DNA of 64,000 nt from positions 17,040 through 81,039 of the forward strand of contig PEAN01000001.1 of the NCBI GenBank assembly GCA_002753735.1. The letters run 5' to 3'. This stretch comes from Magnetococcales bacterium DCbin4. Its GTDB lineage: Bacteria; Pseudomonadota; Magnetococcia; Magnetococcales; UBA8363. Below the pieces are notes generated by a model. It saw only the letters and a program-made list of their open reading frames with translations, made no database searches and had not been told where the DNA came from. Both the position numbers and the translations under genes were made by a program. This document shows positions 29,683 through 62,025 of this stretch, piece after piece. The first letter of the stretch is position 1. Every line of letters begins with the position of its first letter.

Positions 29683-29878
29683 CGACGGCGGATTCCCAAC
29701 CTTCGGTTCGTTTGGTCTCCCCCCCGGTCACACCAGAAGGGTTGATCTCCAGGGAATACTACCTGCTTGAGCCGATGTTCCGAAAGGAGTCAGCGGAAAA
29801 AAATGGCAGCGATCTGTTTGTTGAGGGATTGGGCATCGTCGGACATGGAAATCGTTCCAGGGGGTGTTGACATCATTT

Positions 29879-30378
29879 TCAACGGATGGGTGGGGGGACG
29901 GGGGCGGCGGTTGGAGGGTTGGGCAGACGCATCTCTTGAGTGGCAGGGGCGGGGGGGACGGATTGCACGGGGATTGGCCAAAGACGCAAAAGGCCGAACG
30001 CGGCAAGGAACATGGCACCCAACTTGATGACCATGCGGAGTTCCAATTCTTTCATGTCACGCTTGAGATTGGCTTCCAGCTCTTTGATATCTCGTTTGAG
30101 GTTGGCTTCCACAGTGGCCAGCTTGAGATCCAACTCTTGCCTGGTCGCCAGACCATCCAGATGACCTTTGACCTGTTGTTCGTTGCGGTCCGCCAGGGTG
30201 TCCAGTTTTTCTTCATTCTGCTTGTCGCGTTTGGCCGCGAGATCATCCACACGGGCATCCATCTGCCGCATGAACGTAGCCAATACCTTCACCTGGGCTT
30301 CACCTGGGCGGTGGGAATCCCGGCACGTTCCAGTTCCTTCACAAAGGCCAGTGTGTCAAATGGGATGGCGGTACTCAT
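29879..30378 (-). pseudogene. DUF1640-like coiled-coil membrane-anchored protein, frameshifted by an 11-bp tandem duplication
   Basis: ATG 30378 gives MSTAIPFDTLAFVKELERAGIPTAQVKPR*. ORF 29879..30292 continues as KVLATFMRQ...KRDIKELEANLKRDMKELELRMVIKLGAMFLAAFGLL. CTTCACCTGGG occurs twice in tandem (30287-30297 and 30298-30308), and deleting one copy fuses the two parts in frame. Confidence 0.6.
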
Positions 30379-30752
30379 GGTTCATCGATTAGGAAAAGTG
30401 TCCTTGTTCGTTCGCCAAATTTGGCGAGCGTTGTTGGCAGGTCCAGAATACTGTATCCGACCCCGGCCAACCCCGTCCAACAAATTCCGCTTGACCCCTT
30501 TGACTCCCGGGATGGCCAGGAGTGATGATGAGGGCACGGGGTCGAAAATCCCTCAAAGAGCGGATCCGCACCCATCAGACTATTGCGGACTTTTTGTGCC
30601 TGGTTCCGGCATGCGTTCTGCAGGATTGTTGTTGACAAAATGGCGGATGGAAATGGTACACTTTTCAATGGGTAGCGGTTTCTAAAACCGCACCCTTTCC
30701 GGGGCCTGTGGACTTCTGTCCGCAGGCTTCCGCGTTTTTGAAGGATGATGTT

Positions 30753-31541
30753 ATGCTTCATTTTGTATATCTTGACGAATTTGGACACGATGGACCATTC
30801 ATTTCCCGTACCCACCCCAGATACAACACCAGCCCGGTTTTCGGTTTGGCTGGGTTCATTCTTCCTTATGATAAAGTTCGTTGTTTTGCGACATGGTTCT
30901 ACCAGCTAAAAAATAACCTTCTTGCATGGGAACTGAAACGTTCCGGCAAACATCCAGCACAGTGGGAGAAAAAAGGATCATCTCTTTATACGGTGAAAAA
31001 TATTAGAAAATATCCAGATCTTAGAGCAGCTACCAACCGCTTTATCAACCGAATCCAACGGGATGGTGGCGAATTGTTCTACTCGGGATTGAATAAATAT
31101 CAACCTCCCGCAAATCATGATTCCAAAGCTCTATATCGGGTGGGGTTGACGAAGGCTATTCGTCTTCTCGACCTGAAATTTTCCCGTACCAACGACACAT
31201 TTGTTCTAATGCTGGATCAACACCAGGAACGGACGGCTTTGGTGAAAGCTGCTTCCCAAACCATGTTTGGCGAAGATGGTGTGCGCACCCTTCTTGAACC
31301 TCCATTTCAGTTGGAAAGCCACCTTTATCAAACCCTTCAATGTGCCGATTGGATTTGTGGCCTGATGGGTCGATGGTTATCTCACCAATGCAATCAGCAC
31401 GATTTCAATGATTTTGAATGGGCAGAACATTATTTTGGTGACCGCATCAGAATTGCCGCGCCATCTGGCACTATCGAATCAAGAGGGCGGTCAGAGGAAC
31501 AAAGGAAATCTGGCTACCGTCATAGATTTTTAAATGAATAA
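30753..31541 (+). CDS. DUF3800-like protein
   Basis: Start reset to MLHFVYLDEFGHDG (ATG 30753, AAGGATGA upstream). The N-terminal YxDE(S/F)G-type motif and the length resemble DUF3800. The assignment is tentative. Confidence 0.5.
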   Translation: MLHFVYLDEFGHDGPFISRTHPRYNTSPVFGLAGFILPYDKVRCFATWFYQLKNNLLAWELKRSGKHPAQWEKKGSSLYTVKNIRKYPDLRAATNRFINRIQRDGGELFYSGLNKYQPPANHDSKALYRVGLTKAIRLLDLKFSRTNDTFVLMLDQHQERTALVKAASQTMFGEDGVRTLLEPPFQLESHLYQTLQCADWICGLMGRWLSHQCNQHDFNDFEWAEHYFGDRIRIAAPSGTIESRGRSEEQRKSGYRHRFLNE

Positions 31542-31856
31542 GAACAATGTCTAAAACGAATACCACACCGATTGGGAGCGACGGGTTCAAGAAACGATGA
31601 AGAGATTGACTGTTCCGATGTTCCCGAACTTCCTGAAGCCTTTGTCCAGTGCATCGTCAGACAATTATTCCTAAAAGATTTCCTGATATCTCCACCGTAG
31701 CGCAAATCTTAATTAAAACTATAAATTTTGAAGAATAAAAATACGACCTATCATCCAAGGGCTGCGACGTTTACCTTGCCATTGAAAACGGAAATGGGAA
31801 GATGGTCATGTCGTGATTGAATTGGACCATGAAACGTAACAGGTTACACTTGGGGC

Positions 31857-32135
31857 GTGATCATCCATTTCCGACATCAAGGCATGAAGCTCAATTTTGA
31901 AACTGGCTCAAGGTGCAAGATCAAACCTGAACACGAGGGGAGGCTGCGCCTGATCCTGGCCCGGCTTGAAGCCGGTCATGACCCCTGGGACATGAATCTT
32001 CCGGGATTGAAGCTTCACCAACTGGACGGGGATCTTGGTGGTCACTGGTCGGTTTGGGTTTCTGGAAACTGGCGCGTCACCTTCCGCTTCCAGGGGAATG
32101 ATGTCGTTGACGTTGATGATTTGGACGATCATTGA
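31857..32135 (+). CDS. higB: Type II toxin, HigB / plasmid-maintenance-killer (RelE superfamily)
   Basis: 92 aa, GTG start. LARLEAGHDPWDMNLPGLKLHQLDGDLGGHWSVWVSGNWRVTFRF, ending D-D-H (family DYH tail). Followed by higA. Confidence 0.8.
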   Translation: MIIHFRHQGMKLNFETGSRCKIKPEHEGRLRLILARLEAGHDPWDMNLPGLKLHQLDGDLGGHWSVWVSGNWRVTFRFQGNDVVDVDDLDDH

Positions 32136-32153
32136 GCGGAAAGGAAAAACCCA

Positions 32154-32441
32154 ATGCGTATGCACAATCCACCACATCCGGGTGAAGTGATCCGGGAATT
32201 GTGTCTCGCTCCACTGGGACTTTCAGTGACCAAGGCGGCAGAGGGTTTGGGGGTCACCCGGAAAACGCTTTCCTCTCTTCTGAATGGCCGGTCCGGCATT
32301 TCACCGGAAATGGCGATCCGCCTTTCCAAGTCCTTCGGAGGAAGTCCGGAAAGTTGGTTGTCACAGCAAATGATCTATGATCTTTGGGAAACAGAACACC
32401 GGGTAGGTGAAATCAATGTGACTGTTTTCAATGCTGTTTGA
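32154..32441 (+). CDS. higA: Type II antitoxin HigA (XRE-type HTH)
   Basis: [62 protein letters not shown] is the canonical HigA-family pattern. Confidence 0.85.
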
Positions 32442-32514
32442 TTGGGCTACTCATCCATGGGCCTCTAATGCTTCTGACTCAGGTATCACCGCTTGGACCG
32501 GGCCGCATCCCAAC

Positions 32515-32612
32515 GGTTCTCTGACGAAGTCCCCCAAGGTTCTTCTTTAAATGATTTTGATCGATTACCGAAGCCGAAACCTTGGGGGTAATCCCCCAGA
32601 CCCCTTTTTTTT
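32515..32612. repeat. Degenerate copy E of the MITE-like family (right terminus intact, left terminus decayed)
   Basis: GTCCCCCAAGGTT...AACCTTGGGGGTAATCCCCCAGACCCC-T8. The left outer A-run/GGGGTCT end is missing. Confidence 0.55.
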
Positions 32613-32712
32613 CTTGATCATGAAGTCAATACGCCCTGGTTCGTAAAGCACCGCACCCTTTCATATTTTAAACAACCGCCAATCATCAATCGTATCATTG
32701 CCGCGTAAATCA

Positions 32713-33882
32713 TCATTTTGTTGGAGGCAAACAGTTCGCAGCAATCATTGCTTTCTTTCTGATTGTTCTAAGCGGCTTTTCGATAAAAACAAAAATAAAA
32801 GATAAGGAAAATATAGCGAACACCGCAAATAAAAGGTTCATAAAAGGTTCAAAGTTATATAGCCCGCGAAAACTATAAGCGAGCGGTACATTCAGCAGAT
32901 AAATGGGATATGAAAGATCACCCGCCAGATTGTCAAGATTTCGACCAGAAATGGGGAATTCCAATTTGCTATTAGCCAAATAATAAATAAAAATGCTTGA
33001 AAAACAAAAAAGAACCGTTGAAATAATTCGCGGTTCATCGGTAAGCGATTGATGAGTTCCTACATAGTGCCAATACATTATATTAGATATAATAAAGAAA
33101 AATAAAAGAAAATTTTTAATCTTTTTTCGATAAATTTCCTGCGCCGTGTGGTTTCGTAGAGCAAGAGCCGAACCAAAAAGAAAGAATGGTAAATGGTAAA
33201 GAATTCCTGCCGCATTTGTAACTGGGGAGAAAGCAAGTTCAAAAAATTTGAACATTCCAGCGCTATGAGAGGTAAAAATACTACCCATTAACATCGGCGA
33301 AACAAATACACTTGCAAAATCAATGATTGCCGCAAGAAATATAACACGTATCAACATTGTTAAATTAAGAAATTCACAATAGTTATCCCTAGATCTCCTT
33401 AAAAAAATAACAACAGCGAACATTAGTAAATAAGCACGAAGCTCAACGTCAATCGTCCAAAGAGCAGGATTCCAATCTTTTTCAAAAGCAACGTTTGTAT
33501 TCCGAAAAATCAACAATAAATAAGCCCAAAGAGAACACCAGTAGTTAGCAATCTCGATTAAAAATTGGCGAAATCCATAAACTGAAAATGAGTCGAAGCG
33601 TATTATTTGATAATTTAAAAAGTGGATTTTAACTACAGGCAGGATAGAGAAAAAAACGAGTGTTAGATAATAAGTTGGAAAAATGCGTAATGCCCTATTG
33701 ATCAAGAACCGAGTTGGATTTTTTATTAGAATTTTATTACTGACAACCATATTGGTGACAAAAAATCCGGAAACGACAAAAAATAGAGAGACTCCAAAAA
33801 AACCAGCACCATATTTTCTAAAAATATTTTGATCAGAAACTATGAGCGAAGAAAAATGAAAAGCTGCAACTACCGAAGCCAA
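32713..33882 (-). CDS. Acyltransferase family 3 (membrane O-acyltransferase); the true 5' end is probably upstream, through the G19 tract
   Basis: Polytopic. VSLFFVVSGFF and RALRIFPTYY motifs. Visibly AT-rich compared with its neighbours. The listed TTG start removes the conserved N-terminal helix, which is still encoded in frame upstream. Confidence 0.75.
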   Translation of the reverse strand: MASVVAAFHFSSLIVSDQNIFRKYGAGFFGVSLFFVVSGFFVTNMVVSNKILIKNPTRFLINRALRIFPTYYLTLVFFSILPVVKIHFLNYQIIRFDSFSVYGFRQFLIEIANYWCSLWAYLLLIFRNTNVAFEKDWNPALWTIDVELRAYLLMFAVVIFLRRSRDNYCEFLNLTMLIRVIFLAAIIDFASVFVSPMLMGSIFTSHSAGMFKFFELAFSPVTNAAGILYHLPFFLFGSALALRNHTAQEIYRKKIKNFLLFFFIISNIMYWHYVGTHQSLTDEPRIISTVLFCFSSIFIYYLANSKLEFPISGRNLDNLAGDLSYPIYLLNVPLAYSFRGLYNFEPFMNLLFAVFAIFSLSFIFVFIEKPLRTIRKKAMIAANCLPPTK

Positions 33883-33925
33883 TATGAAGCGTAAAAAACC
33901 AAAACCCTGTATTGAAGACTTATTA

Positions 33926-33944
33926 CCCCCCCCCCCCCCCCCCC
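33926..33944 (-). repeat. Homopolymer: 19 x C on the + strand (G19 on the acyltransferase coding strand)
   Basis: Counted directly: tattaCCCCC CCCCCCCCCC CCCCactt. Confidence 0.95.
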
Positions 33945-34047
33945 ACTTACAACCACAGTTGATGCTTTCGCATCGAATTTTAAATAGTCTTTATCGCTTT
34001 TTAACAAAACGGCGTCCTCCTCTAAGCACTATCAGTCTGCAATAAAT

Positions 34048-34124
34048 TGGGGCGAACGACGGGACTTGAACCCGCGACAACCGGAATCACAATCCGGGGC
34101 TCTACCGACTGAGCTACGTTCGCC
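34048..34124 (-). tRNA. tRNA-His (GTG), with encoded G-1, C73 and CCA
   Basis: GGCGAACGTAGCTCAGTCGGTAGAGCCCCGGATTGTGATTCCGGTTGTCGCGGGTTCAAGTCCCGTCGTTCGCCCCA folds as a cloverleaf with anticodon loop TTGTGAT. Confidence 0.9.
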
Positions 34125-34208
34125 ATGCGAGCGGATCGAGGCGACATCATAACATACCGTGCCCGATCCGATACAGCGTTTGTTACAATGACCAAGGGCA
34201 CCAAAATC

Positions 34209-34285
34209 TGGTGCGCCCGGCAGGATTCGAACCTGCAGCCTACGGCTTAGAAGGCCGTTGCTCTATCCGATTGAGCCACGGGCGC
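34209..34285 (-). tRNA. tRNA-Arg (TCT)
   Basis: GCGCCCGTGGCTCAATCGGATAGAGCAACGGCCTTCTAAGCCGTAGGCTGCAGGTTCGAATCCTGCCGGGCGCACCA. Anticodon loop CTTCTAA. Confidence 0.9.
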
Positions 34286-34349
34286 TGGTGAAACTCTGCC
34301 TGACGTCCCGCGCCTGCCAAGCCATGGGTTGGGCCATGGATCGGGCGAA

Positions 34350-34426
34350 TGGTCGGGGTGAGAGGATTTGAACCTCCGGCCCTCGGCTCCCAAAGCCGAT
34401 GCGCTACCAGACTGCGCTACACCCCG
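34350..34426 (-). tRNA. tRNA-Pro (TGG)
   Basis: CGGGGTGTAGCGCAGTCTGGTAGCGCATCGGCTTTGGGAGCCGAGGGCCGGAGGTTCAAATCCTCTCACCCCGACCA. Anticodon loop TTTGGGA. Confidence 0.9.
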
Positions 34427-39564: not shown

Positions 39565-39741
39565 GCATTCCACAGGGTTGTTGCGAATTGGCAACACGGT
39601 GTTGCAAATGAGCATGAGCATTGGTCGGGATCGGGCACGGTGGCCGAGCTGATTTTGGATGCAGACCCATTGATTCAATTGTTGTCACAAACGAAGTTTC
39701 CGGGGCTTCCGGGAGCGGGTTTTCAAACTAAGGAGAGAAGT

Positions 39742-41115
39742 ATGAAGAAGACACTGATTCTTGGTGCGGCCGCGTTGGCCGCCGCTGCCTGGGCTCCCCT
39801 GGCCGATGCTGGTGAAGTCAAACTGGGTGGCTACTACATGGGCCGCTGGCAGATGTATGACTCCAACATGATCGATGAAGTGGCTCCTGCCGACACCGGC
39901 GAGCGTTATGTTCATCGTCTCCAACTGAAAACCGACATGATCGCCTCGGAAAAGAGCCATGCCCACATGGTGGTCCGGGTTCTTGATACCGCAGTGATCG
40001 AAGGTTCCGACCTCGGTTCCGTCTCCTCCGATACCGGAGCGGCGGGCGGCGTTTCCGACACCCAGGTTTCCAATGTGGCCAACCTGGCTGATCCCTGGGA
40101 AATCCGGCAAATGTGGTTGGAAACCGAAGCCTGGGGCATCGGTTTGAAATTTGGTGAAATGCCCATCACCCTCAACGACAAGATCCTCGTCGGTGAAGAT
40201 ACCTCTTCCCATGGTGGATTGTTGCTCTCCAAAACCTTCGGCAATGTGACCGCCGTTGTGGGCAACATTCGTATCAATGAAGACATGAGCACCGGCAGCT
40301 CGATCAATGATCTGACCGCAGCGGGTGCCGCCACCAAGGGTGCCGACAGCGACGACGCCAATCTGTGGGCCATGAGCCTGTTCGGAAAAGCGGGTCTGGC
40401 GGACTATAACTTCACCCTGGCCTATGCCGACCTCCAGGAAGCTTCCGATTTCATGGATGTCCTGGAAACCGTCTGCGGTGCGACCACCCCCTGCACCACC
40501 ACCGACGCCAGCAACATTTGGGCAGCTTTGACCCTGAGCGGCAAACTGGGTTATGTCAACGCCGTCGGTACCATCATTTATGAAGATGGCTATGATTTGT
40601 CCCAGGACACCACCGGTTCCAAGATTTCCAACATGTGGTCCAGCTCCGGACTCCTCGGTGCCCTTCGTCTGAGCGGTAGCCTCAGCTTTGGTGAATGGAA
40701 CGCCTACGGGTTTGTCGCTTCCGAAGACTTCAACAACATCACCAACGACAACATGGTGTGGTCGGCAACCTGGGATCAAAGCGGACCGGGCGGTATCGAC
40801 CTGATGAACACCTTCGCCAACGGCGCAGGGACCAACACCTCCCCCAGCGAAAACATGACGGGTATTGGTGTGGGCCTCAAAGTCAAGGCAGCGGGTTGGA
40901 CCATCAACCCCATGATCGACTATGCCGAAGTGACCGAATCGCAAGCGGGTGGCACTTGGGACTCTGCGGTTGGCGGCAGCTTGCTGCTTTCCACCCAGAT
41001 CCAGAAAGACACCACGCTGTTGCTTGAAACGGCGTTGGTCAATCCCGAAGGGATCAACAGGACCAATGAAGATAATGCCTTCTATGCCCAAGCTGGCATC
41101 AAGATGGCCTTCTGA
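39742..41115 (+). CDS. Putative outer-membrane porin (beta-barrel), paralogue 1
   Basis: Start reset to MKKTLILGAAALAAAAWAPLADA (AAGGAGAG Shine-Dalgarno). Alternating amphipathic strands. C-terminal ...AGIKMAF ends in an aromatic residue. No specific family recognised. Confidence 0.6.
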   Translation: MKKTLILGAAALAAAAWAPLADAGEVKLGGYYMGRWQMYDSNMIDEVAPADTGERYVHRLQLKTDMIASEKSHAHMVVRVLDTAVIEGSDLGSVSSDTGAAGGVSDTQVSNVANLADPWEIRQMWLETEAWGIGLKFGEMPITLNDKILVGEDTSSHGGLLLSKTFGNVTAVVGNIRINEDMSTGSSINDLTAAGAATKGADSDDANLWAMSLFGKAGLADYNFTLAYADLQEASDFMDVLETVCGATTPCTTTDASNIWAALTLSGKLGYVNAVGTIIYEDGYDLSQDTTGSKISNMWSSSGLLGALRLSGSLSFGEWNAYGFVASEDFNNITNDNMVWSATWDQSGPGGIDLMNTFANGAGTNTSPSENMTGIGVGLKVKAAGWTINPMIDYAEVTESQAGGTWDSAVGGSLLLSTQIQKDTTLLLETALVNPEGINRTNEDNAFYAQAGIKMAF

Positions 41116-41153
41116 TTTGACCTGATCGACACGCTGTATCATGTATGAAAGAA

Positions 41154-41188
41154 AGGGGTGGCTCAATTGGGCCGCCCCTTTTTTTTTG
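41154..41188 (+). terminator. Intrinsic terminator after porin 1
   Basis: AGGGGTGGC-tcaattgg-GCCGCCCCT followed by T9. Confidence 0.75.
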
Positions 41189-41675
41189 ATTCTGTTCTGA
41201 TGCGATGATGCAACACTGCTTTTGTGCTTGAAATAATGCGGACAAGGGTTTACCAAATGATTGGATATCATTTGAATTTCAAAAAATTCAATAGATTATC
41301 CACCCTCACCCCTTTCAAACGTTGCCATGAAATGCATCAGTCTGCCCAATATTCAGACGCCGTGTGATCAATTTATGATCCGTTGCTTGCTTGCGGAAGA
41401 GTGTGGCAAAAGCATGACAGGGTGTGTTTTTTGGCAACAGGTGCGCAGCAGATTTTATTTTTGTTTGATTTCAATCAGTTGAGATAAATTTGCCAAGATT
41501 TGCGATTATGGCCTTTTTATTGCGATGATCCAGGGTAAGTTTGAACTGTGATTCATAAGGATGGGCGACATTTTTTTGGAATCGATATCAGGTCATTGCT
41601 GAATCCTGCGGGGATTCCACTGACAATCAATCCGGAATATCCGGAAACAGACTCTTTTCAACAAGGAAAAAGCTG

Positions 41676-43031
41676 ATGAAAAAATCGTTGATTCTTGGTT
41701 TGGCTGCGGTTGCCGCTGCGTGGACTTCTTATGCCGATGCAGGTGAAGTCAAGTTGGGAGGTCAATACATGGGCCGTTGGCAAATGTATGACGCCAACAT
41801 GATTGATGAAGTCGCTCCATCGGATCGGGGTGAGGCTTATGTCCACGAATTGATGTTGAGCACCGACATGATCGCTTCGGAAAAAAGCCATGCGCACATG
41901 CGGGTCCAGGTGCTTGATTCAGCGGTGATCGAAGGTGCTGATCTGGGTTCGGTTTCTTCCGATACCGGTGCGGCCGGTGGGGTATCGAACACCCAGGTTT
42001 CCAATGTCGTCAACCTGGCCGATCCCTGGGAAATCCGGCAAATGTGGTTGGAAACCGAAGCATGGGGCATTGGCGTCAAATTTGGTGAAATGCCCATCAC
42101 CCTTAATGACACCATCCTGGTGGGTGATGACCTTTCTTCCAATGGTGGCCTGTTGCTCTCCAAAACCTTTGGCAACGTGACTGCCGTGGTGGGCAACATT
42201 CGCATCAACGAAGACATGTCCACGGGGGCGTCCTCGGGTAATGATGCGGGCAAGGGTGCCGATAGCGACGACGCCAATTTGTGGGCCATGAGCCTGTTCG
42301 GCAAGGCGGGTCTGGCTGATTACAATTTCACCCTGGCTTATGCCGATCTTCAAGAAGCTTCCGATTTCATGGAAGTGTTGGAAACCGTCTGCGGTGCGAC
42401 GACGCCCTGTGCCACCACTGATGGCAGCAATATTTGGGCTGCTTTGACCTTGAGTGGCAAGCTGGGTTATGTCAATGCGGTGGGTACGGTGATCTATGAG
42501 GATGGCTATGACCTGTCGCAGGACACGACCGGTTCCAAGATTTCCAATCTGTGGTCCAGCTCTGGAATTTTGGGTGCGTTGCGTTTGAATGGCAGCACCG
42601 GATTTGGCGAATGGAATGCCTACGGTTTTGTCGCCTCTGAAGATTTCAACAATATCACCAACGACAACATGGTGTGGTCGGCGACCTGGGACCAAGGCGG
42701 CCCCAATGGAATCGATCTGATGAACAACTTTGCCGTTGGCGCAGGCACCAACACCTCTCCCAGCGAAAATATGACGGGTATTGGTGTGGGCCTCAAAGTC
42801 AAAGCGGCGGGTTGGACCATCAATCCCATGATCGACTATGCGGAAGTGACGGAAGCCCAAGCGGGTGGTACCTGGGATTCCGCGACGGGTGGCAGCCTGC
42901 TCCTCTCTACCGATATCCAAAAAGACACCACGCTCTCTTTGGAAGCGGCAGTGGTCAGCCCGGAGGGGATCAATCGGACCAACGAAGACAACGCCTTCTA
43001 TGCTCAGGCGGGGATCAAGATGATTTTCTGA
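41676..43031 (+). CDS. Putative outer-membrane porin, paralogue 2
   Basis: 451 aa, clearly more than 80% identical to paralogue 1 by eye. Signal peptide. C-terminal ...AGIKMIF. Confidence 0.6.
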   Translation: MKKSLILGLAAVAAAWTSYADAGEVKLGGQYMGRWQMYDANMIDEVAPSDRGEAYVHELMLSTDMIASEKSHAHMRVQVLDSAVIEGADLGSVSSDTGAAGGVSNTQVSNVVNLADPWEIRQMWLETEAWGIGVKFGEMPITLNDTILVGDDLSSNGGLLLSKTFGNVTAVVGNIRINEDMSTGASSGNDAGKGADSDDANLWAMSLFGKAGLADYNFTLAYADLQEASDFMEVLETVCGATTPCATTDGSNIWAALTLSGKLGYVNAVGTVIYEDGYDLSQDTTGSKISNLWSSSGILGALRLNGSTGFGEWNAYGFVASEDFNNITNDNMVWSATWDQGGPNGIDLMNNFAVGAGTNTSPSENMTGIGVGLKVKAAGWTINPMIDYAEVTEAQAGGTWDSATGGSLLLSTDIQKDTTLSLEAAVVSPEGINRTNEDNAFYAQAGIKMIF

Positions 43032-43059
43032 TCTGAATGTCTTCAGTGCAGAACCCGAA

Positions 43060-43108: not shown

Positions 43109-44113
43109 TCATCCCTGGTGCGAAAAAACATCGTCCAACGATTGGGCGTCAAAAATTTTGAGACTCCATACCTCCAAAGCGGAAGATTCCGCTTGGATGA
43201 TTTTTTTTTCGACCCACTCCGGTACCGGACCAAAGCGACGTTGCAACAGACGGAGCAGTATTTTGGCTTCGCCTTTTTTTTCACCCATCTGCTCGCCCTC
43301 TTTCCGACCTTCCTCCCGACCTTCCTCCCGACCTTCCTCCCGACCTTCCTTCCAACCTTCCTCCCGACCTTCCAGTTTTCCAAGGCCATAGTTTGATTGC
43401 ACCAGGCTGGCCTGATGATGGAGGTCATCCTTGTATCGTTCGTAGGCCCGTCGTTCCGGTTCAGACAGTTTCAATATATCAAGCTGTTCTTTGGCTTTGA
43501 CCAGACCACGGGCGGTGGATCCTTCACGAATTTCCTCGTTTTTCAAAAAATAAATCCATTCATCCAGGGAATCTCGCGCCACATCGTTAAAGCGATTCAC
43601 CTTGATCAAATAATATTCCGGGAAGAGTTCTGGCACCGAGTTGCGATGAAACAACGCCTTTTGTCCTTCACTGAGCGTCAATTCATCGTTTGTATGCAAT
43701 CCTTTGAATGTGGTCGTTCCCTTGTAGACATAATCGGCGCCCTGTCCCAGGTCGAAATACATGATGTTGACGGAAATCACTTTGAGGATGCTGGAATAAG
43801 GTTCATGTTCATTGATATGTTCGGTAATCGCTTTGGCGGTTCCATATAAAAGACGTTGCAGATAGTCCCATTCGCGTTGATATTGCAATTCGATGAGGAT
43901 CAATTCCCCACGCATGTTTTTTACCTTGATGTCCACCCGGTTGTATTTGTCGAGCCTGTCATCCTTGTTGCCTTCACTTTCCAGGATTTCTTGAATACGA
44001 AGATCTTCCTTGAGCAGTTCGCTCAGGAATCCTTCCAAAATTTCAAAGTTTGCCTTGCTGCGCAAAAGACGTTTCAAGGCCCAATCAAAGCTGATCAACC
44101 GGCGTTGTTTCAT
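43109..44113 (-). CDS. Rpn-family recombination-promoting nuclease / putative transposase (PD-(D/E)XK), with a GREE-repeat linker
   Basis: N-terminus ISFDWALKRLLRSKANFEILEGFL...RVDIKVKN..ELILIELQ (D..E.Q core). C-terminal LLRLLQRRFGPVPEWVEKKI helix, typical of this family. Confidence 0.65.
   Translation of the reverse strand: MKQRRLISFDWALKRLLRSKANFEILEGFLSELLKEDLRIQEILESEGNKDDRLDKYNRVDIKVKNMRGELILIELQYQREWDYLQRLLYGTAKAITEHINEHEPYSSILKVISVNIMYFDLGQGADYVYKGTTTFKGLHTNDELTLSEGQKALFHRNSVPELFPEYYLIKVNRFNDVARDSLDEWIYFLKNEEIREGSTARGLVKAKEQLDILKLSEPERRAYERYKDDLHHQASLVQSNYGLGKLEGREEGWKEGREEGREEGREEGRKEGEQMGEKKGEAKILLRLLQRRFGPVPEWVEKKIIQAESSALEVWSLKIFDAQSLDDVFSHQG
43306..43375 (-). repeat. 12-bp coding tandem repeat (GACCTTCCTCCC on the + strand), about 5.8 units
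   Basis: Units at 43306, 43318 and 43330 are perfect. The units at 43342, 43354 and 43366 are degenerate. Encodes EGREEGREEGREEG in the Rpn-like protein. Confidence 0.9.
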
Positions 44114-58890: not shown

Positions 58891-61800
58891 ATGATTAAAA
58901 GCACAAGCATTCTGGCTTTGTCAGCACTCTTTACAATGGGTGTCGCAGCCTGTGGTGGTGGTGGCGGCAGCTCCGATCCAGGGATTGGTGGTCTGGCAGT
59001 CGATGGACCGGTCAAAAGTGGTACGGTCAAGGTGTATAATGCGGGTGGAACCCAGTGTTCTGCGGCGACGGTAACGACGAATTCCGATGCAACCTTCAGC
59101 ATCAGCGGCAGTTCGTGTACCTATCCATTGGTGCTGGAACTGTCGGGCGGTACCGATACCCTGCATTCCGCCGCAGGGGTTACGGTTCCGGTCGGAACCA
59201 TGCGTTCCATCGTGGCCAGCAGTGCTTCGTCCAAGGCCAACATTTCTCCGTTCTCCACCTTGATCTACCATGCCCTGATCAAGGACAAGACCAATCTGAC
59301 CGATGCCGGCGTCACGACCACCAGCGCCTCCAGTGACATTGCTTCCCGGGCCACCTCGGTCATCAATGCCTTTGGCTTTGGTGTCGATGCCAATACCGAC
59401 GGCAGTTCCAACAGCAGCTTCAATCCCATCGCCTATTCGTTGGGCAATACCAATATTGCAACCTTCGTTCAGGCGAGCGAAGCCTTGTCCGAAACCGTCC
59501 GTCGTACCGCCAAGGCCGCGGGTGGTGTCAGTGTCACCAACATTGAGGCGATTCTCAAAACCATCGGCCAGGATCTTTCCGACGACTCCCTGGACGGCAA
59601 CATGAAGAAGGCGGATGGAACTTCGACCACCGTCTCTTCCGGCATCTCCGGTTTCGGCACCGACAGTGTCCGCGCCTGGGCCAGATCCAACGCCCTGTTC
59701 GTCCTCAACGAAATCTATTCCACCGATGGCCTGAGGATTACCGATCAAACCGGATCCCAGGTCAGCGCCCTTACCGCCCTCAAAACAGCGGTCTCCGGGG
59801 TCAGCGGTTCGGCGACCACCAGCTATGACAGCGTCAAGCCGACCTCTGCGGTGGCCACGCAGTGGAGCGATGCCAAGAAAACCGCCCTGGCGCTTCTGGG
59901 TCTTTCCTCCCTTTCGGATCTGGGAATTTCCACGGACTTGACGACGTCGCAATCGGTCAGTTCCCGGGGTGCCAAAGCGGTCAACTCCACCTACGTTTCC
60001 AATGTGGCCGATTCCACCAAGGTTTCGACCTATTCGGCCAACGTCAGTGCCGCGATTTCCGGTTCCTCATCCACCAGTTCTTCGACATCCAGCACCTCGA
60101 CGAGTTCCGCGACCGTAACGGGTACCGCAGTTGAAGGTCCCGTGTCGAGTGCGAGCATCAAGGTGTACAACGCCAATGGAACCGAGTGTTCAGCGGCGGC
60201 AACCACAACCAATTCCAATGCCCAGTTCACCTTGAACATTGGTTCCTGTACCCCTCCGCTCGCTGTTGACCTTTCGGGTGGTACCGACTCGGTACACAGC
60301 ACCACGGGTGGTACGATGCCTCAGACCAACATGCGTTCCATCATTGGAACCGCCAGTCAGAGCATTGCCAATATCTCACCCTTCTCCACACTGATTTATT
60401 ATGCCCTGATCGGGGAGAGCAGTAATCTGGCCGACGCGGGGATCACGACCAGTACCGTTTCGACCCAGCTCAAGACCAAATCGACTGCGGTGTTGGCCGT
60501 TTTTGGATTCGGTGTCGATACGAATACCGACGGTACCTCCACTGATGATTTCAATCCCATCACCGCCAACCTTGGTTCGACCAATCTGGCAACCTTCATT
60601 CAGGCCAGTGAAGCCCTGTCCGAAACGGTCCGGCGTACCGCCAGTTCCGCGGGTAGTGTCAGCAGCTCCAACATTGGCTTGTTATTCCGTTCCCTGGGTC
60701 AGGATCTGTCCGATGACACTTTGGACGGTAGCATGAAGAAGAAGGATGGTTCCACGGGCACCGTCTCTTCCGGAATTACCGGTTTTGACATGTCCAACGT
60801 ACGTGCCTTTGTTCAGACCAATGCCCTGTTCGTCCTCAACGAAGTGTTTTCAACGGGTGGTTTGAAAATTACCGATACGACCGGAACGCAACGTTCCGCC
60901 CTGGATGCCATCAAGTCGGCGGTGCAAGGGGTACGTTCTTCTGCCGTTGCGACCTTTGACAGTGTCAAACCCAGCGGTATCGTTGCGACCCAGTGGCAGT
61001 TGGCCAAAACCACGGCTTTGACCCTGGGTGGTTTCAGCAGCCTTGCACAACTTGGAATTTCCTCCGACATTTCAACTTCGGTTGCGATCAGTGCCCGTCC
61101 TTTCATGGTCAGCAGCACGGTGGCGGCCAACTTTGTTGACGCCAACAAGGTTGCCTCCTTCTCTGCCAACATTACTCAGGCCAATGCGATCTTCGTCAGT
61201 GCTGCCGTTTCCGCTGCCGCTGTTGCCTCGGCCTCGGCTGCTGCAAGGGCTTCTGCTTCTGCCTCAGCTTCTGCCTCAGCTTCTGCTTCTGCCTCTGCCT
61301 CCGGTTCCACTTCGACATCGGCTTCCACGTCCGCCTTCTGGGTACCGCTCAGCTCCATCACGTTGACGGACTATCCGAGCAATACCGCAACGACTTTGAC
61401 GCCCAATCTGACCTCCATTTCCGGAGGCGAGTTGACCGTGTCATTGTCTTCGACCGCGACGGTCAGTGCTTCCAACCTGGCATTGTTGGCCAGTTCGAGT
61501 GTTTCTTCTTCCGCAACCCCGCCGGTGTTGAATTTCCGTTTGACCAACATTCCTTCGGGCAGTGGATCCATTGGTGTGACCATGAACCTGTTGGATGGCA
61601 GCGATTCTTCCAGAACTACCGGAGAACGGATGATTTCCGCCACCTTCAGTCTGCCCTACAGCAGCAACGGCACCACGTTGACCTTGACCAGTCCGTCTTC
61701 TGCCACGGTCAGCTATTACACCAAAACAGCGACTTCGGCGTCCTCTGCCACGTTGTCGAATGTTTCCGTTTCCAACCTGGTGGCGACTTCGTCGGGTTCC

Positions 61801-62025
61801 AATCAGTCCAGTCTGAGTACCGACCTCAAATTGCGGATCGCCACTTTGTTCAATACCGCTTCTTCCAACGGCAATTCGATTCTGGCGCAATCGCTCAATG
61901 GTACGAGCCAGGCAGGCAACTACTATTATTCGGTCGATTTTTCCGGGGTCACCCTTACCGGGATCGATGCCAGCAGCAATGCTTCAAACTTCTCCAAGGT
62001 CAAGGGGACGTTTACCGCACGGTAA
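58891..62025 (+). CDS. Large Ser/Thr/Ala-rich surface lipoprotein with an internal 377-aa duplication
   Basis: Lipobox GVAAC followed by GGGGGSS. Repeat 1 is 58990-60120 and repeat 2 is 60121 to about 61200, each opening GPV.SG.VKVYNA.GT.CSAA. (Ala-Ser)n linker and a distinct C-terminal domain. No family recognised. Confidence 0.8.
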   Translation: MIKSTSILALSALFTMGVAACGGGGGSSDPGIGGLAVDGPVKSGTVKVYNAGGTQCSAATVTTNSDATFSISGSSCTYPLVLELSGGTDTLHSAAGVTVPVGTMRSIVASSASSKANISPFSTLIYHALIKDKTNLTDAGVTTTSASSDIASRATSVINAFGFGVDANTDGSSNSSFNPIAYSLGNTNIATFVQASEALSETVRRTAKAAGGVSVTNIEAILKTIGQDLSDDSLDGNMKKADGTSTTVSSGISGFGTDSVRAWARSNALFVLNEIYSTDGLRITDQTGSQVSALTALKTAVSGVSGSATTSYDSVKPTSAVATQWSDAKKTALALLGLSSLSDLGISTDLTTSQSVSSRGAKAVNSTYVSNVADSTKVSTYSANVSAAISGSSSTSSSTSSTSTSSATVTGTAVEGPVSSASIKVYNANGTECSAAATTTNSNAQFTLNIGSCTPPLAVDLSGGTDSVHSTTGGTMPQTNMRSIIGTASQSIANISPFSTLIYYALIGESSNLADAGITTSTVSTQLKTKSTAVLAVFGFGVDTNTDGTSTDDFNPITANLGSTNLATFIQASEALSETVRRTASSAGSVSSSNIGLLFRSLGQDLSDDTLDGSMKKKDGSTGTVSSGITGFDMSNVRAFVQTNALFVLNEVFSTGGLKITDTTGTQRSALDAIKSAVQGVRSSAVATFDSVKPSGIVATQWQLAKTTALTLGGFSSLAQLGISSDISTSVAISARPFMVSSTVAANFVDANKVASFSANITQANAIFVSAAVSAAAVASASAAARASASASASASASASASASGSTSTSASTSAFWVPLSSITLTDYPSNTATTLTPNLTSISGGELTVSLSSTATVSASNLALLASSSVSSSATPPVLNFRLTNIPSGSGSIGVTMNLLDGSDSSRTTGERMISATFSLPYSSNGTTLTLTSPSSATVSYYTKTATSASSATLSNVSVSNLVATSSGSNQSSLSTDLKLRIATLFNTASSNGNSILAQSLNGTSQAGNYYYSVDFSGVTLTGIDASSNASNFSKVKGTFTAR

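Follow-up and report, generated by a model that had tools for sequence, protein, structure and literature searches.

A candidate poly-G phase-variation switch at the 5′ end of an acyltransferase-3 gene in a Magnetococcales metagenome-assembled genome

The 64 kb of DNA analysed here (the window, meaning the whole stretch) belongs to contig PEAN01000001.1 of a Magnetococcales metagenome-assembled genome (MAG), that is, of an uncultured magnetotactic bacterium. A preliminary description of this DNA pointed to 19 consecutive C residues on the plus strand at 33926-33944, in the 5′ part of a gene read from the minus strand and encoding an acyltransferase-3 (AT3) protein. The count is exact. We propose this tract as the hypermutable element of a translational slipped-strand phase-variation (contingency) switch acting on an acquired, AT3-only membrane O-acyltransferase, a reading that we hold to be probable, with real reservations. 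The tract itself is real, and its length varies between assemblies, whether in cells or through sequencing.

A count of all homopolymers in the window gives 9 as the second-longest run of G or C. Because the other G/C runs in the 64 kb reach nine at most, the G19 tract is not a chance feature. Its context on the minus strand is ...AACTGTGGTTGTAAGT-G19-TAATAAGTCTTCAATACAGGG.... Runs of at least nine G residues slip often, as is established for tracts of Neisseria and Campylobacter. For the Neisseria phasome, the threshold for frequent slippage has been put at nine or more G residues (PMC5953494), and the tract described here exceeds it in all three assemblies that reach it, with G19, G14 and at least G10. 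Since a G run of 14–19 nt is expected to slip often, the decisive inference is that ribosomes initiate 5′ of it. Its place is between the start we propose, a Shine-Dalgarno (SD) sequence with TTG 34007, and an essential motif of the enzyme, R-X10-H, with no start in between, so that gain or loss of a single nucleotide shifts the frame.

The acyltransferase reading frame and its candidate starts

The annotated open reading frame (ORF) extends from 32713 to 33882, begins with a TTG and encodes 389 amino acid residues. The preliminary description held that the AT3 frame stays open upstream of that TTG and through the tract without a canonical start, and that the real N-terminus must lie further upstream. 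Frame translation bears out the first statement: the frame reads ...CKWGGGGGGNKSSIQGFGFLRFILASVVAAFHF... through the tract, and no ATG, GTG or TTG occurs in it between the stop at 33993-33991 and TTG 33882. The non-canonical codons ATT, ATC and ATA were considered as starts in the current frame and rejected, as none of them has a convincing SD at the proper spacing.

The second statement is supported by the protein itself, as follows. In AT3 proteins, helix 1 contains an R-X10-H motif that is absolutely conserved and of which both residues are essential; an RXXR motif is found at helix 3 (PMC9833829). The R-X10-H sequence here is LRFILASVVAAFH (R-FILASVVAAF-H), and it is complete only in the frame extended 5′ of TTG 33882. 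That TTG encodes the third residue after the motif Arg, and the annotated 389-residue product lacks this Arg, which is invariant across a seven-sequence alignment of the closest homologues. The product scores 69.3 bits with PF01757 (curated cut-off 31; E 3.9e-19), covering positions 5-324 of the 326 in the profile, and matches PHROG 3333, ‘O-acetyltransferase’, with an E-value of 7e-25; both profile matches begin 4–9 residues past the tract, upstream of TTG 33882. A search of the AT3 protein against NCBIfam profiles gave no match. Among 5.8 billion protein clusters, the two closest relatives, P0002 and P0003 (35–41% identity), begin with M-I-N/K-G-I-G-L-I-R-F, which aligns with S-I-Q-G-F-G-F-L-R-F of the window; it follows from this alignment that their start Met corresponds to TCA 33915-33913, 4–5 residues past the tract. 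Because the motif Arg and the starts of both profiles and homologues precede TTG 33882, the functional N-terminus must lie upstream of that codon. The two forms of the protein called in public data, of 389 and 345 residues, would thus lack the essential helix-1 Arg.

The RXXR motif on the cytoplasmic face of helix 3 is present (NRALRIFP), and both of its Arg residues are invariant in the alignments. An AlphaFold2 model of the post-tract protein is all-helical, with a predicted template modelling score of 0.76 and a mean predicted local distance difference test score of 73.6; helix 1 spans residues 8-28 and includes Arg12 and His23, and a product initiated at TTG 33882 would begin at residue 15. 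A Foldseek search of the Protein Data Bank gave no match at E ≤ 0.001 (277 at E ≤ 10, the best at 0.17) and so offered no solved AT3 structure for comparison. Identity to the viral relatives found is 24–33%, and no relatives of the protein were found in GTDB genomes. This AT3-only membrane O-acyltransferase most likely acts on a surface glycan. Since its nearest homologues, at 35–41% identity, sit in nonulosonic-acid clusters with NeuB and CTP_transf_3 (CMP-sugar synthetase), a glycan containing nonulosonic acid is suggested, not proven, as the substrate.

Where, then, does translation begin? The GTG at 33956-33954 was put forward in the preliminary description as a start in frame with the enzyme at G20 or G17. 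The frame arithmetic is right, but this GTG has no SD. TTG 34007-34005, which does have a strong one (AGAGGAGGA), would be the better start. The chance of finding such an SD-plus-start pair, correctly oriented, in the 60 nt of AT-rich DNA 5′ of the tract is roughly 1% by our own estimate. As TTG 34007 and GTG 33956 share one frame, the ON and OFF lengths of the tract are the same for either. The frame of the ATG at 33973, as had been described, closes just before the tract, at TAA 33949-33947.

Read from TTG 34007, the consequences of tract length are these. At G20 or G17 the frame gives a full protein of about 430 residues, in which a hydrophilic leader and a stretch of glycines precede helix 1. 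At G19 it gives a peptide of 45 codons that ends at 33870, and at G18 or G21 it stops at once at TAATAA (33925-33920). We therefore picture the switch in the following way. Transcription would read through from an operon for tRNA-Pro, tRNA-Arg and tRNA-His into a promoterless cassette. Ribosomes would initiate at TTG 34007 under the strong SD, read a hydrophilic leader of about 20 residues and then the tract as poly-glycine. With 17, 20 or 23 G residues they would go on into helix 1 (IQGFGFLRF...H) to make the full enzyme; with 19 they would terminate after the 45 codons, and with 18 or 21 at TAATAA. Replication slippage in the run of 14–19 G residues would alter its length at high frequency, so that a population would be a mixture of ON and OFF cells.

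The RNA of the leader folds no better than shuffled sequences (z = −0.19), and an Rfam scan for a known RNA element in the leader matched only three tRNAs. A small hairpin, GATGC-GAAA-GCATC on the minus strand at 33959-33976, lies within the leader, 15 nt 5′ of the tract. The features are collected in Table 1.

Table 1. Coordinates of the G tract, the acyltransferase gene and associated features in the window
Feature	Position	Strand	Remark
AT3 (PF01757) reading frame	32713..33990	-	Runs open across the tract, from just past TAA 33993-33991 until the stop at 32713
Strain-specific AT-rich cassette (AT3 gene, leader and tract), 1.6 kb	32432..34043		Conspecific contigs diverge here and carry other cargo
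R-X10-H motif, transmembrane helix 1	33856..33891	-	Arg 33891-33889, His 33858-33856
Leader reading frame at G19, 45 codons (OFF product)	33870..34007	-	Its TAG end overlaps the region of the annotated AT3 start
TAATAA, immediately 3′ of the tract	33920..33925	-	Two stops in the third frame; AAAAA in JADFWW010000001.1
G19 homopolymer (C19 on the plus strand)	33926..33944	-	Read directly and by homopolymer count
GTG, alternative start	33954..33956	-	Shares a frame with TTG 34007; no SD
TTG, proposed true start	34005..34007	-	Frame joins the AT3 frame at G20 or G17
SD-like AGAGGAGGA	34015..34023	-	8-nt spacer to TTG 34007
Cluster of tRNA-Pro, tRNA-Arg and tRNA-His	34048..34426	-	Directly upstream on the same strand; tRNA-His 34048-34123

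Tract length in other assemblies and competing explanations

A comparison of tract lengths shows that assemblies of one population differ. The 389-residue protein is also encoded on NCBI contig JADFWW010000001.1 of GCA_015234015.1. Over 21 kb (22713-43888) its sole departures from the window are at 29957, at 29961 and in the tract region, where it reads AAGT-G14-AAAAA-GTCTTC in place of AAGT-G19-TAATAA-GTCTTC. In a third assembly, JGI 3300003895, the contig takes in the gene and the TAATAA flank before breaking off 10 G residues into the tract (at least G10). A Logan contig of ERR711863 stops just beyond the 3′ end of the gene. Given that other assemblies of the population read G14 or break inside the tract, the length of 19 is unreliable. 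Searches for the exact locus, with DNA patterns from either flank, had no match among the representative genomes of GTDB, the metagenome contigs of JGI or IMG/VR, and look-ups of the 45-residue leader product and of a 406-residue partial product yielded no additional spanning contigs. The relatives retrieved by way of a neighbouring gene were all Magnetococcales MAGs.

The distance from AAGT to GTCTTC is 19 + 6 = 25 nt in the window and 14 + 5 = 19 nt in JADFWW010000001.1. As these differ by 6, the two complete versions share one OFF frame. The state of the JADFWW010000001.1 allele hinges on a suspicious stretch of 5 nt, because G14 followed by TAATAA, the flank found in both the window and the JGI assembly, would be in frame. 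As to the two other differences, the window has G at 29957 and at 29961 where three other assemblies have C and T, beside a run of 6–7 G residues (GGGGGGGACGGATT versus GGGGGGCACGTATT); these may be real single-nucleotide polymorphisms or G-biased errors of the window assembly.

The slipped-strand contingency locus of the preliminary description stands in its anatomy; the difference in length between assemblies is ambiguous. Several observations weigh against a working switch, as follows. Both complete assemblies (n = 2) are out of frame, with no ON allele among them. No in-frame, ON-length protein was found in a collection of 15 billion proteins, and the cluster at 90% identity contains only the calls of 389 and 345 residues, the latter from the second assembly. 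The leader is without a homologue, and the relatives begin with a plain ATG just before helix 1. Pairs of SD and start of the quality of TTG 34007 are not very rare, with 22 in 128 kb counted over both strands. The 64-kb window contains no further long G/C tract, and so gives no hint that such loci form a genome-wide set. Finally, all the sequences are short-read metagenome assemblies, so that the tract lengths, and perhaps AAAAA versus TAATAA, may be technical.

The out-of-frame assemblies, the missing in-frame protein and the simple ATG of the closest homologues are also what one would expect of a silenced, decaying gene, in which the tract, brought in with the cassette or gained later, is a mutational relic of no regulatory use that has left a young pseudogene permanently out of frame. 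That the cassette is dispensable, being missing from conspecific strains, would fit as well. Against long decay speaks the intact enzyme frame of 403 codons, which has kept all its motifs, R-X10-H and RXXR included, in DNA of 34% GC. Moreover, a permanent OFF state would be hard to keep with an inherently unstable run of 14–19 G residues, and an SD with its TTG, an open leader and stops out of frame suit a working switch. We regard a pseudogene as unlikely.

The tract might instead be real and its length mis-assembled. The true sequence would then be in frame, for example as G20 or as G14 with TAATAA, and the gene would encode an ordinary expressed acyltransferase with a poly-glycine linker. 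Short-read metagenome assemblies that disagree or break at the tract are compatible with such an error, as are the in-frame reading of G14 with the TAATAA flank of the two other assemblies and the two G-for-C/T differences of the window, which lie beside another G run. But an in-frame tract would still switch; the current state would be altered and the mechanism would not. The probability that two assemblies would both err into one wrong frame is about 1 in 3. An ordinary gene with a mis-assembled tract length seems to us quite unlikely.

In a third explanation, slippage of RNA polymerase, or a −1 slip of the ribosome, on the G run would join the frame of TTG 34007 to that of the enzyme, and the frame common to the two alleles would be the functional one. 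Both alleles do share the frame in which a −1 shift within the run yields the full protein, and in a pure G run any glycine tRNA should be able to re-pair in any frame. The agreement of two alleles in frame, however, has a 1 in 3 chance, and G-rich slippery sites are generally known as poor frameshift sites. Nor is there a stimulatory RNA structure 3′ of the tract, the sequence there (minimum free energy −6.1 kcal/mol, z = +1.28) being less structured than its shuffles. Such recoding is, in our judgement, very unlikely. Lastly, that the organism has no long G run at all, the tract being a pure sequencing or assembly artefact, deserves hardly any credence: two-colour Illumina chemistry is known to give poly-G artefacts and the DNA comes from a MAG, but the run is internal to long contigs, has coherent AT-rich coding sequence on both sides and recurs at one site in three independent assemblies (the window, JADFWW010000001.1 and the JGI assembly).

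The strain-specific cassette beside tRNA-His

The gene had been described as foreign-looking and as lying in an AT-rich segment directly beside a tRNA gene, and both points are borne out. The GC content is 0.33–0.38 over 32600-33999, against 0.52 for the window, and GC at third codon positions is 0.28 in the AT3 gene, against 0.52–0.69 in host genes. Conspecific contigs, 99.7–99.8% identical on the side of the pyr genes, leave the window sequence 2–4 nt past tRNA-His. One of them, PDZY01000007.1, has at this site a KAP-family NTPase gene and a gene for a 1044-residue protein. Another, JADGCI010000059.1, has a YafQ-like toxin gene and an array of 75-nt repeats; its sequence meets that of the window again at 32431, in the 3′ end of higA. 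Because conspecific contigs diverge here with other cargo, the AT3 gene, its leader and the tract together form a strain-specific module, acquired horizontally. More distant relatives, at 76% identity (L006 and L007), have yet other cargo after tRNA-His. The tract was also considered as the junction of a chimeric assembly and rejected: AT-rich sequence flanks it on both sides, and the strain-specific junctions are at 34043/34044 and 32431/32432.

None of the ORFs between hemA and tRNA-His matched an integrase family; those scanned matched DUF3800, a HigB-like toxin, HTH_3 and AT3, and one matched nothing. No prophage was found around the gene, and no direct repeat of the tRNA-His 3′ end (att) was found at the far border.

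About 36 nt separate tRNA-His from TTG 34007. There is no terminator-like site on the gene strand between the tRNA and the gene, and a search for a promoter of its own gave one weak sigma-70-like match, at 34004-33977, no better than shuffles. With no terminator, no promoter above the shuffles and so short a gap, the cassette is probably promoterless and co-transcribed with the tRNA-Pro/Arg/His operon.

The site 3′ of tRNA-His is a hot spot for cargo (29700-34047 of the window; L021, 3583-5519; L022, 3585-5108), with three alternative cargos in conspecifics, the AT3 cassette being one of them. The 75-nt tandem repeat of JADGCI010000059.1 (L022, 4297-4755) has about six copies, three of them at 94% identity; it is not CRISPR-like, because it is without spacers. 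On the other side, genes for a HigB-like toxin (31857-32135) and a helix-turn-helix antitoxin (32154-32441) adjoin the cassette, and a DUF3800 protein encoded at 30708-31541 matches phage family phrog_26069 (3.5e-73). The region 30708-32441 has 41–46% GC and is probably acquired DNA too.

Farther away, two adjacent genes for proteins of about 450 residues, at 39685-41271 and 41655-43036, match no Pfam family and have 81% DNA identity over 1.4 kb; the pair resembles a tandem duplication. A 12-nt tandem repeat, CCGACCTTCCTC, lies at 43304-43373 (5.8 copies, 93% match), and a GCTTCT-type repeat of 6/12/18 nt at 61249-61301, within the 1044-residue ORF 58891-62025. The units of both repeats are divisible by three. 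Elsewhere in the order, Magnetococcales bacterium DCbin2 (PEAO01000060.1; L008, 14207-14218) has an in-frame G12 in the middle of a gene for a 279-residue multi-pass membrane protein (...RGKRGGGAETS...).

Parallels with known systems

It is tempting to go further, and we do so only tentatively. The locus as a whole may be a Magnetococcales contingency locus, a promoterless and strain-specific O-acyltransferase cassette behind a tRNA operon, whose sole control is a hypermutable G tract of 14–19 nt and which would produce stochastic variants of a surface glycan, for example against phages. If the switch is real, the true gene would begin at 34007, only certain tract lengths would allow it to be read, and the public calls would describe a product that lacks the Arg. 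Repeat-driven control of surface O-acylation, well known in Neisseria, Haemophilus and Campylobacter, would then occur in a freshwater, free-living magnetotactic bacterium as well, and the simple-sequence phase variation of glycan-modifying AT3 enzymes would extend from host-adapted pathogens to environmental populations, where it would be visible directly in metagenomes. Phage pressure, not immunity, would be the likely driver in free-living bacteria. In addition, the disagreement between metagenome assemblies over this homopolymer would mark a biologically meaningful site, not noise. Among the matches listed in a literature search, none linked magnetotactic bacteria with phase variation.

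The closest parallel is pglI (NMB1836) of Neisseria, a known phase-variable gene that encodes a pilin-glycan O-acetyltransferase and contains a genic G tract of 9–15 residues (PMC5953494; PMC9558356). Both genes combine an AT3 domain with a poly-G tract within the gene that switches, or here would switch, translation on and off. There is no close sequence relationship between the two. PglI is an AT3 protein with a fused periplasmic SGNH domain, whereas the window protein is AT3-only, with about 400 residues, and the tract in the window is longer (14–19) and forms part of an added N-terminal leader that precedes helix 1. Furthermore, Neisseria is a host-restricted pathogen with many such loci, and the host of the window is a free-living magnetotactic bacterium.

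Other systems share some of these elements. The oafA gene of H. influenzae, for a lipooligosaccharide O-acetylase, is likewise an AT3 surface-glycan O-acetylase gene made phase variable by a repeat in its 5′ part (PMC9558356 and its reference 73). Its repeat is a tetranucleotide and not a homopolymer, and the gene is a chromosomal core gene of a pathogen, not a tRNA-linked, strain-specific cassette. Oac of Shigella phage Sf6 and Lag-1 of Legionella, which acetylates legionaminic acid, are stand-alone AT3 proteins of 10 helices that were horizontally acquired and modify surface polysaccharide (PMC9558356). They are without control by simple sequence repeats, and the window gene differs in turn in having no integrase, prophage or att repeat nearby. 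In the flagellin glycosylation locus of Campylobacter jejuni, intragenic G/C homopolymers switch enzymes of a nonulosonic-acid glycan, Cj1295 being an example (PMC3068675; PMC8355987); the protein families are different, and there are dozens of tracts per genome against one in the 64-kb window. On the best reading, then, the AT3 gene of the window is another case of a known kind of poly-G switch, unusual in its host, in the length of its tract, in its added leader and in its setting in a promoterless cassette linked to tRNA genes.

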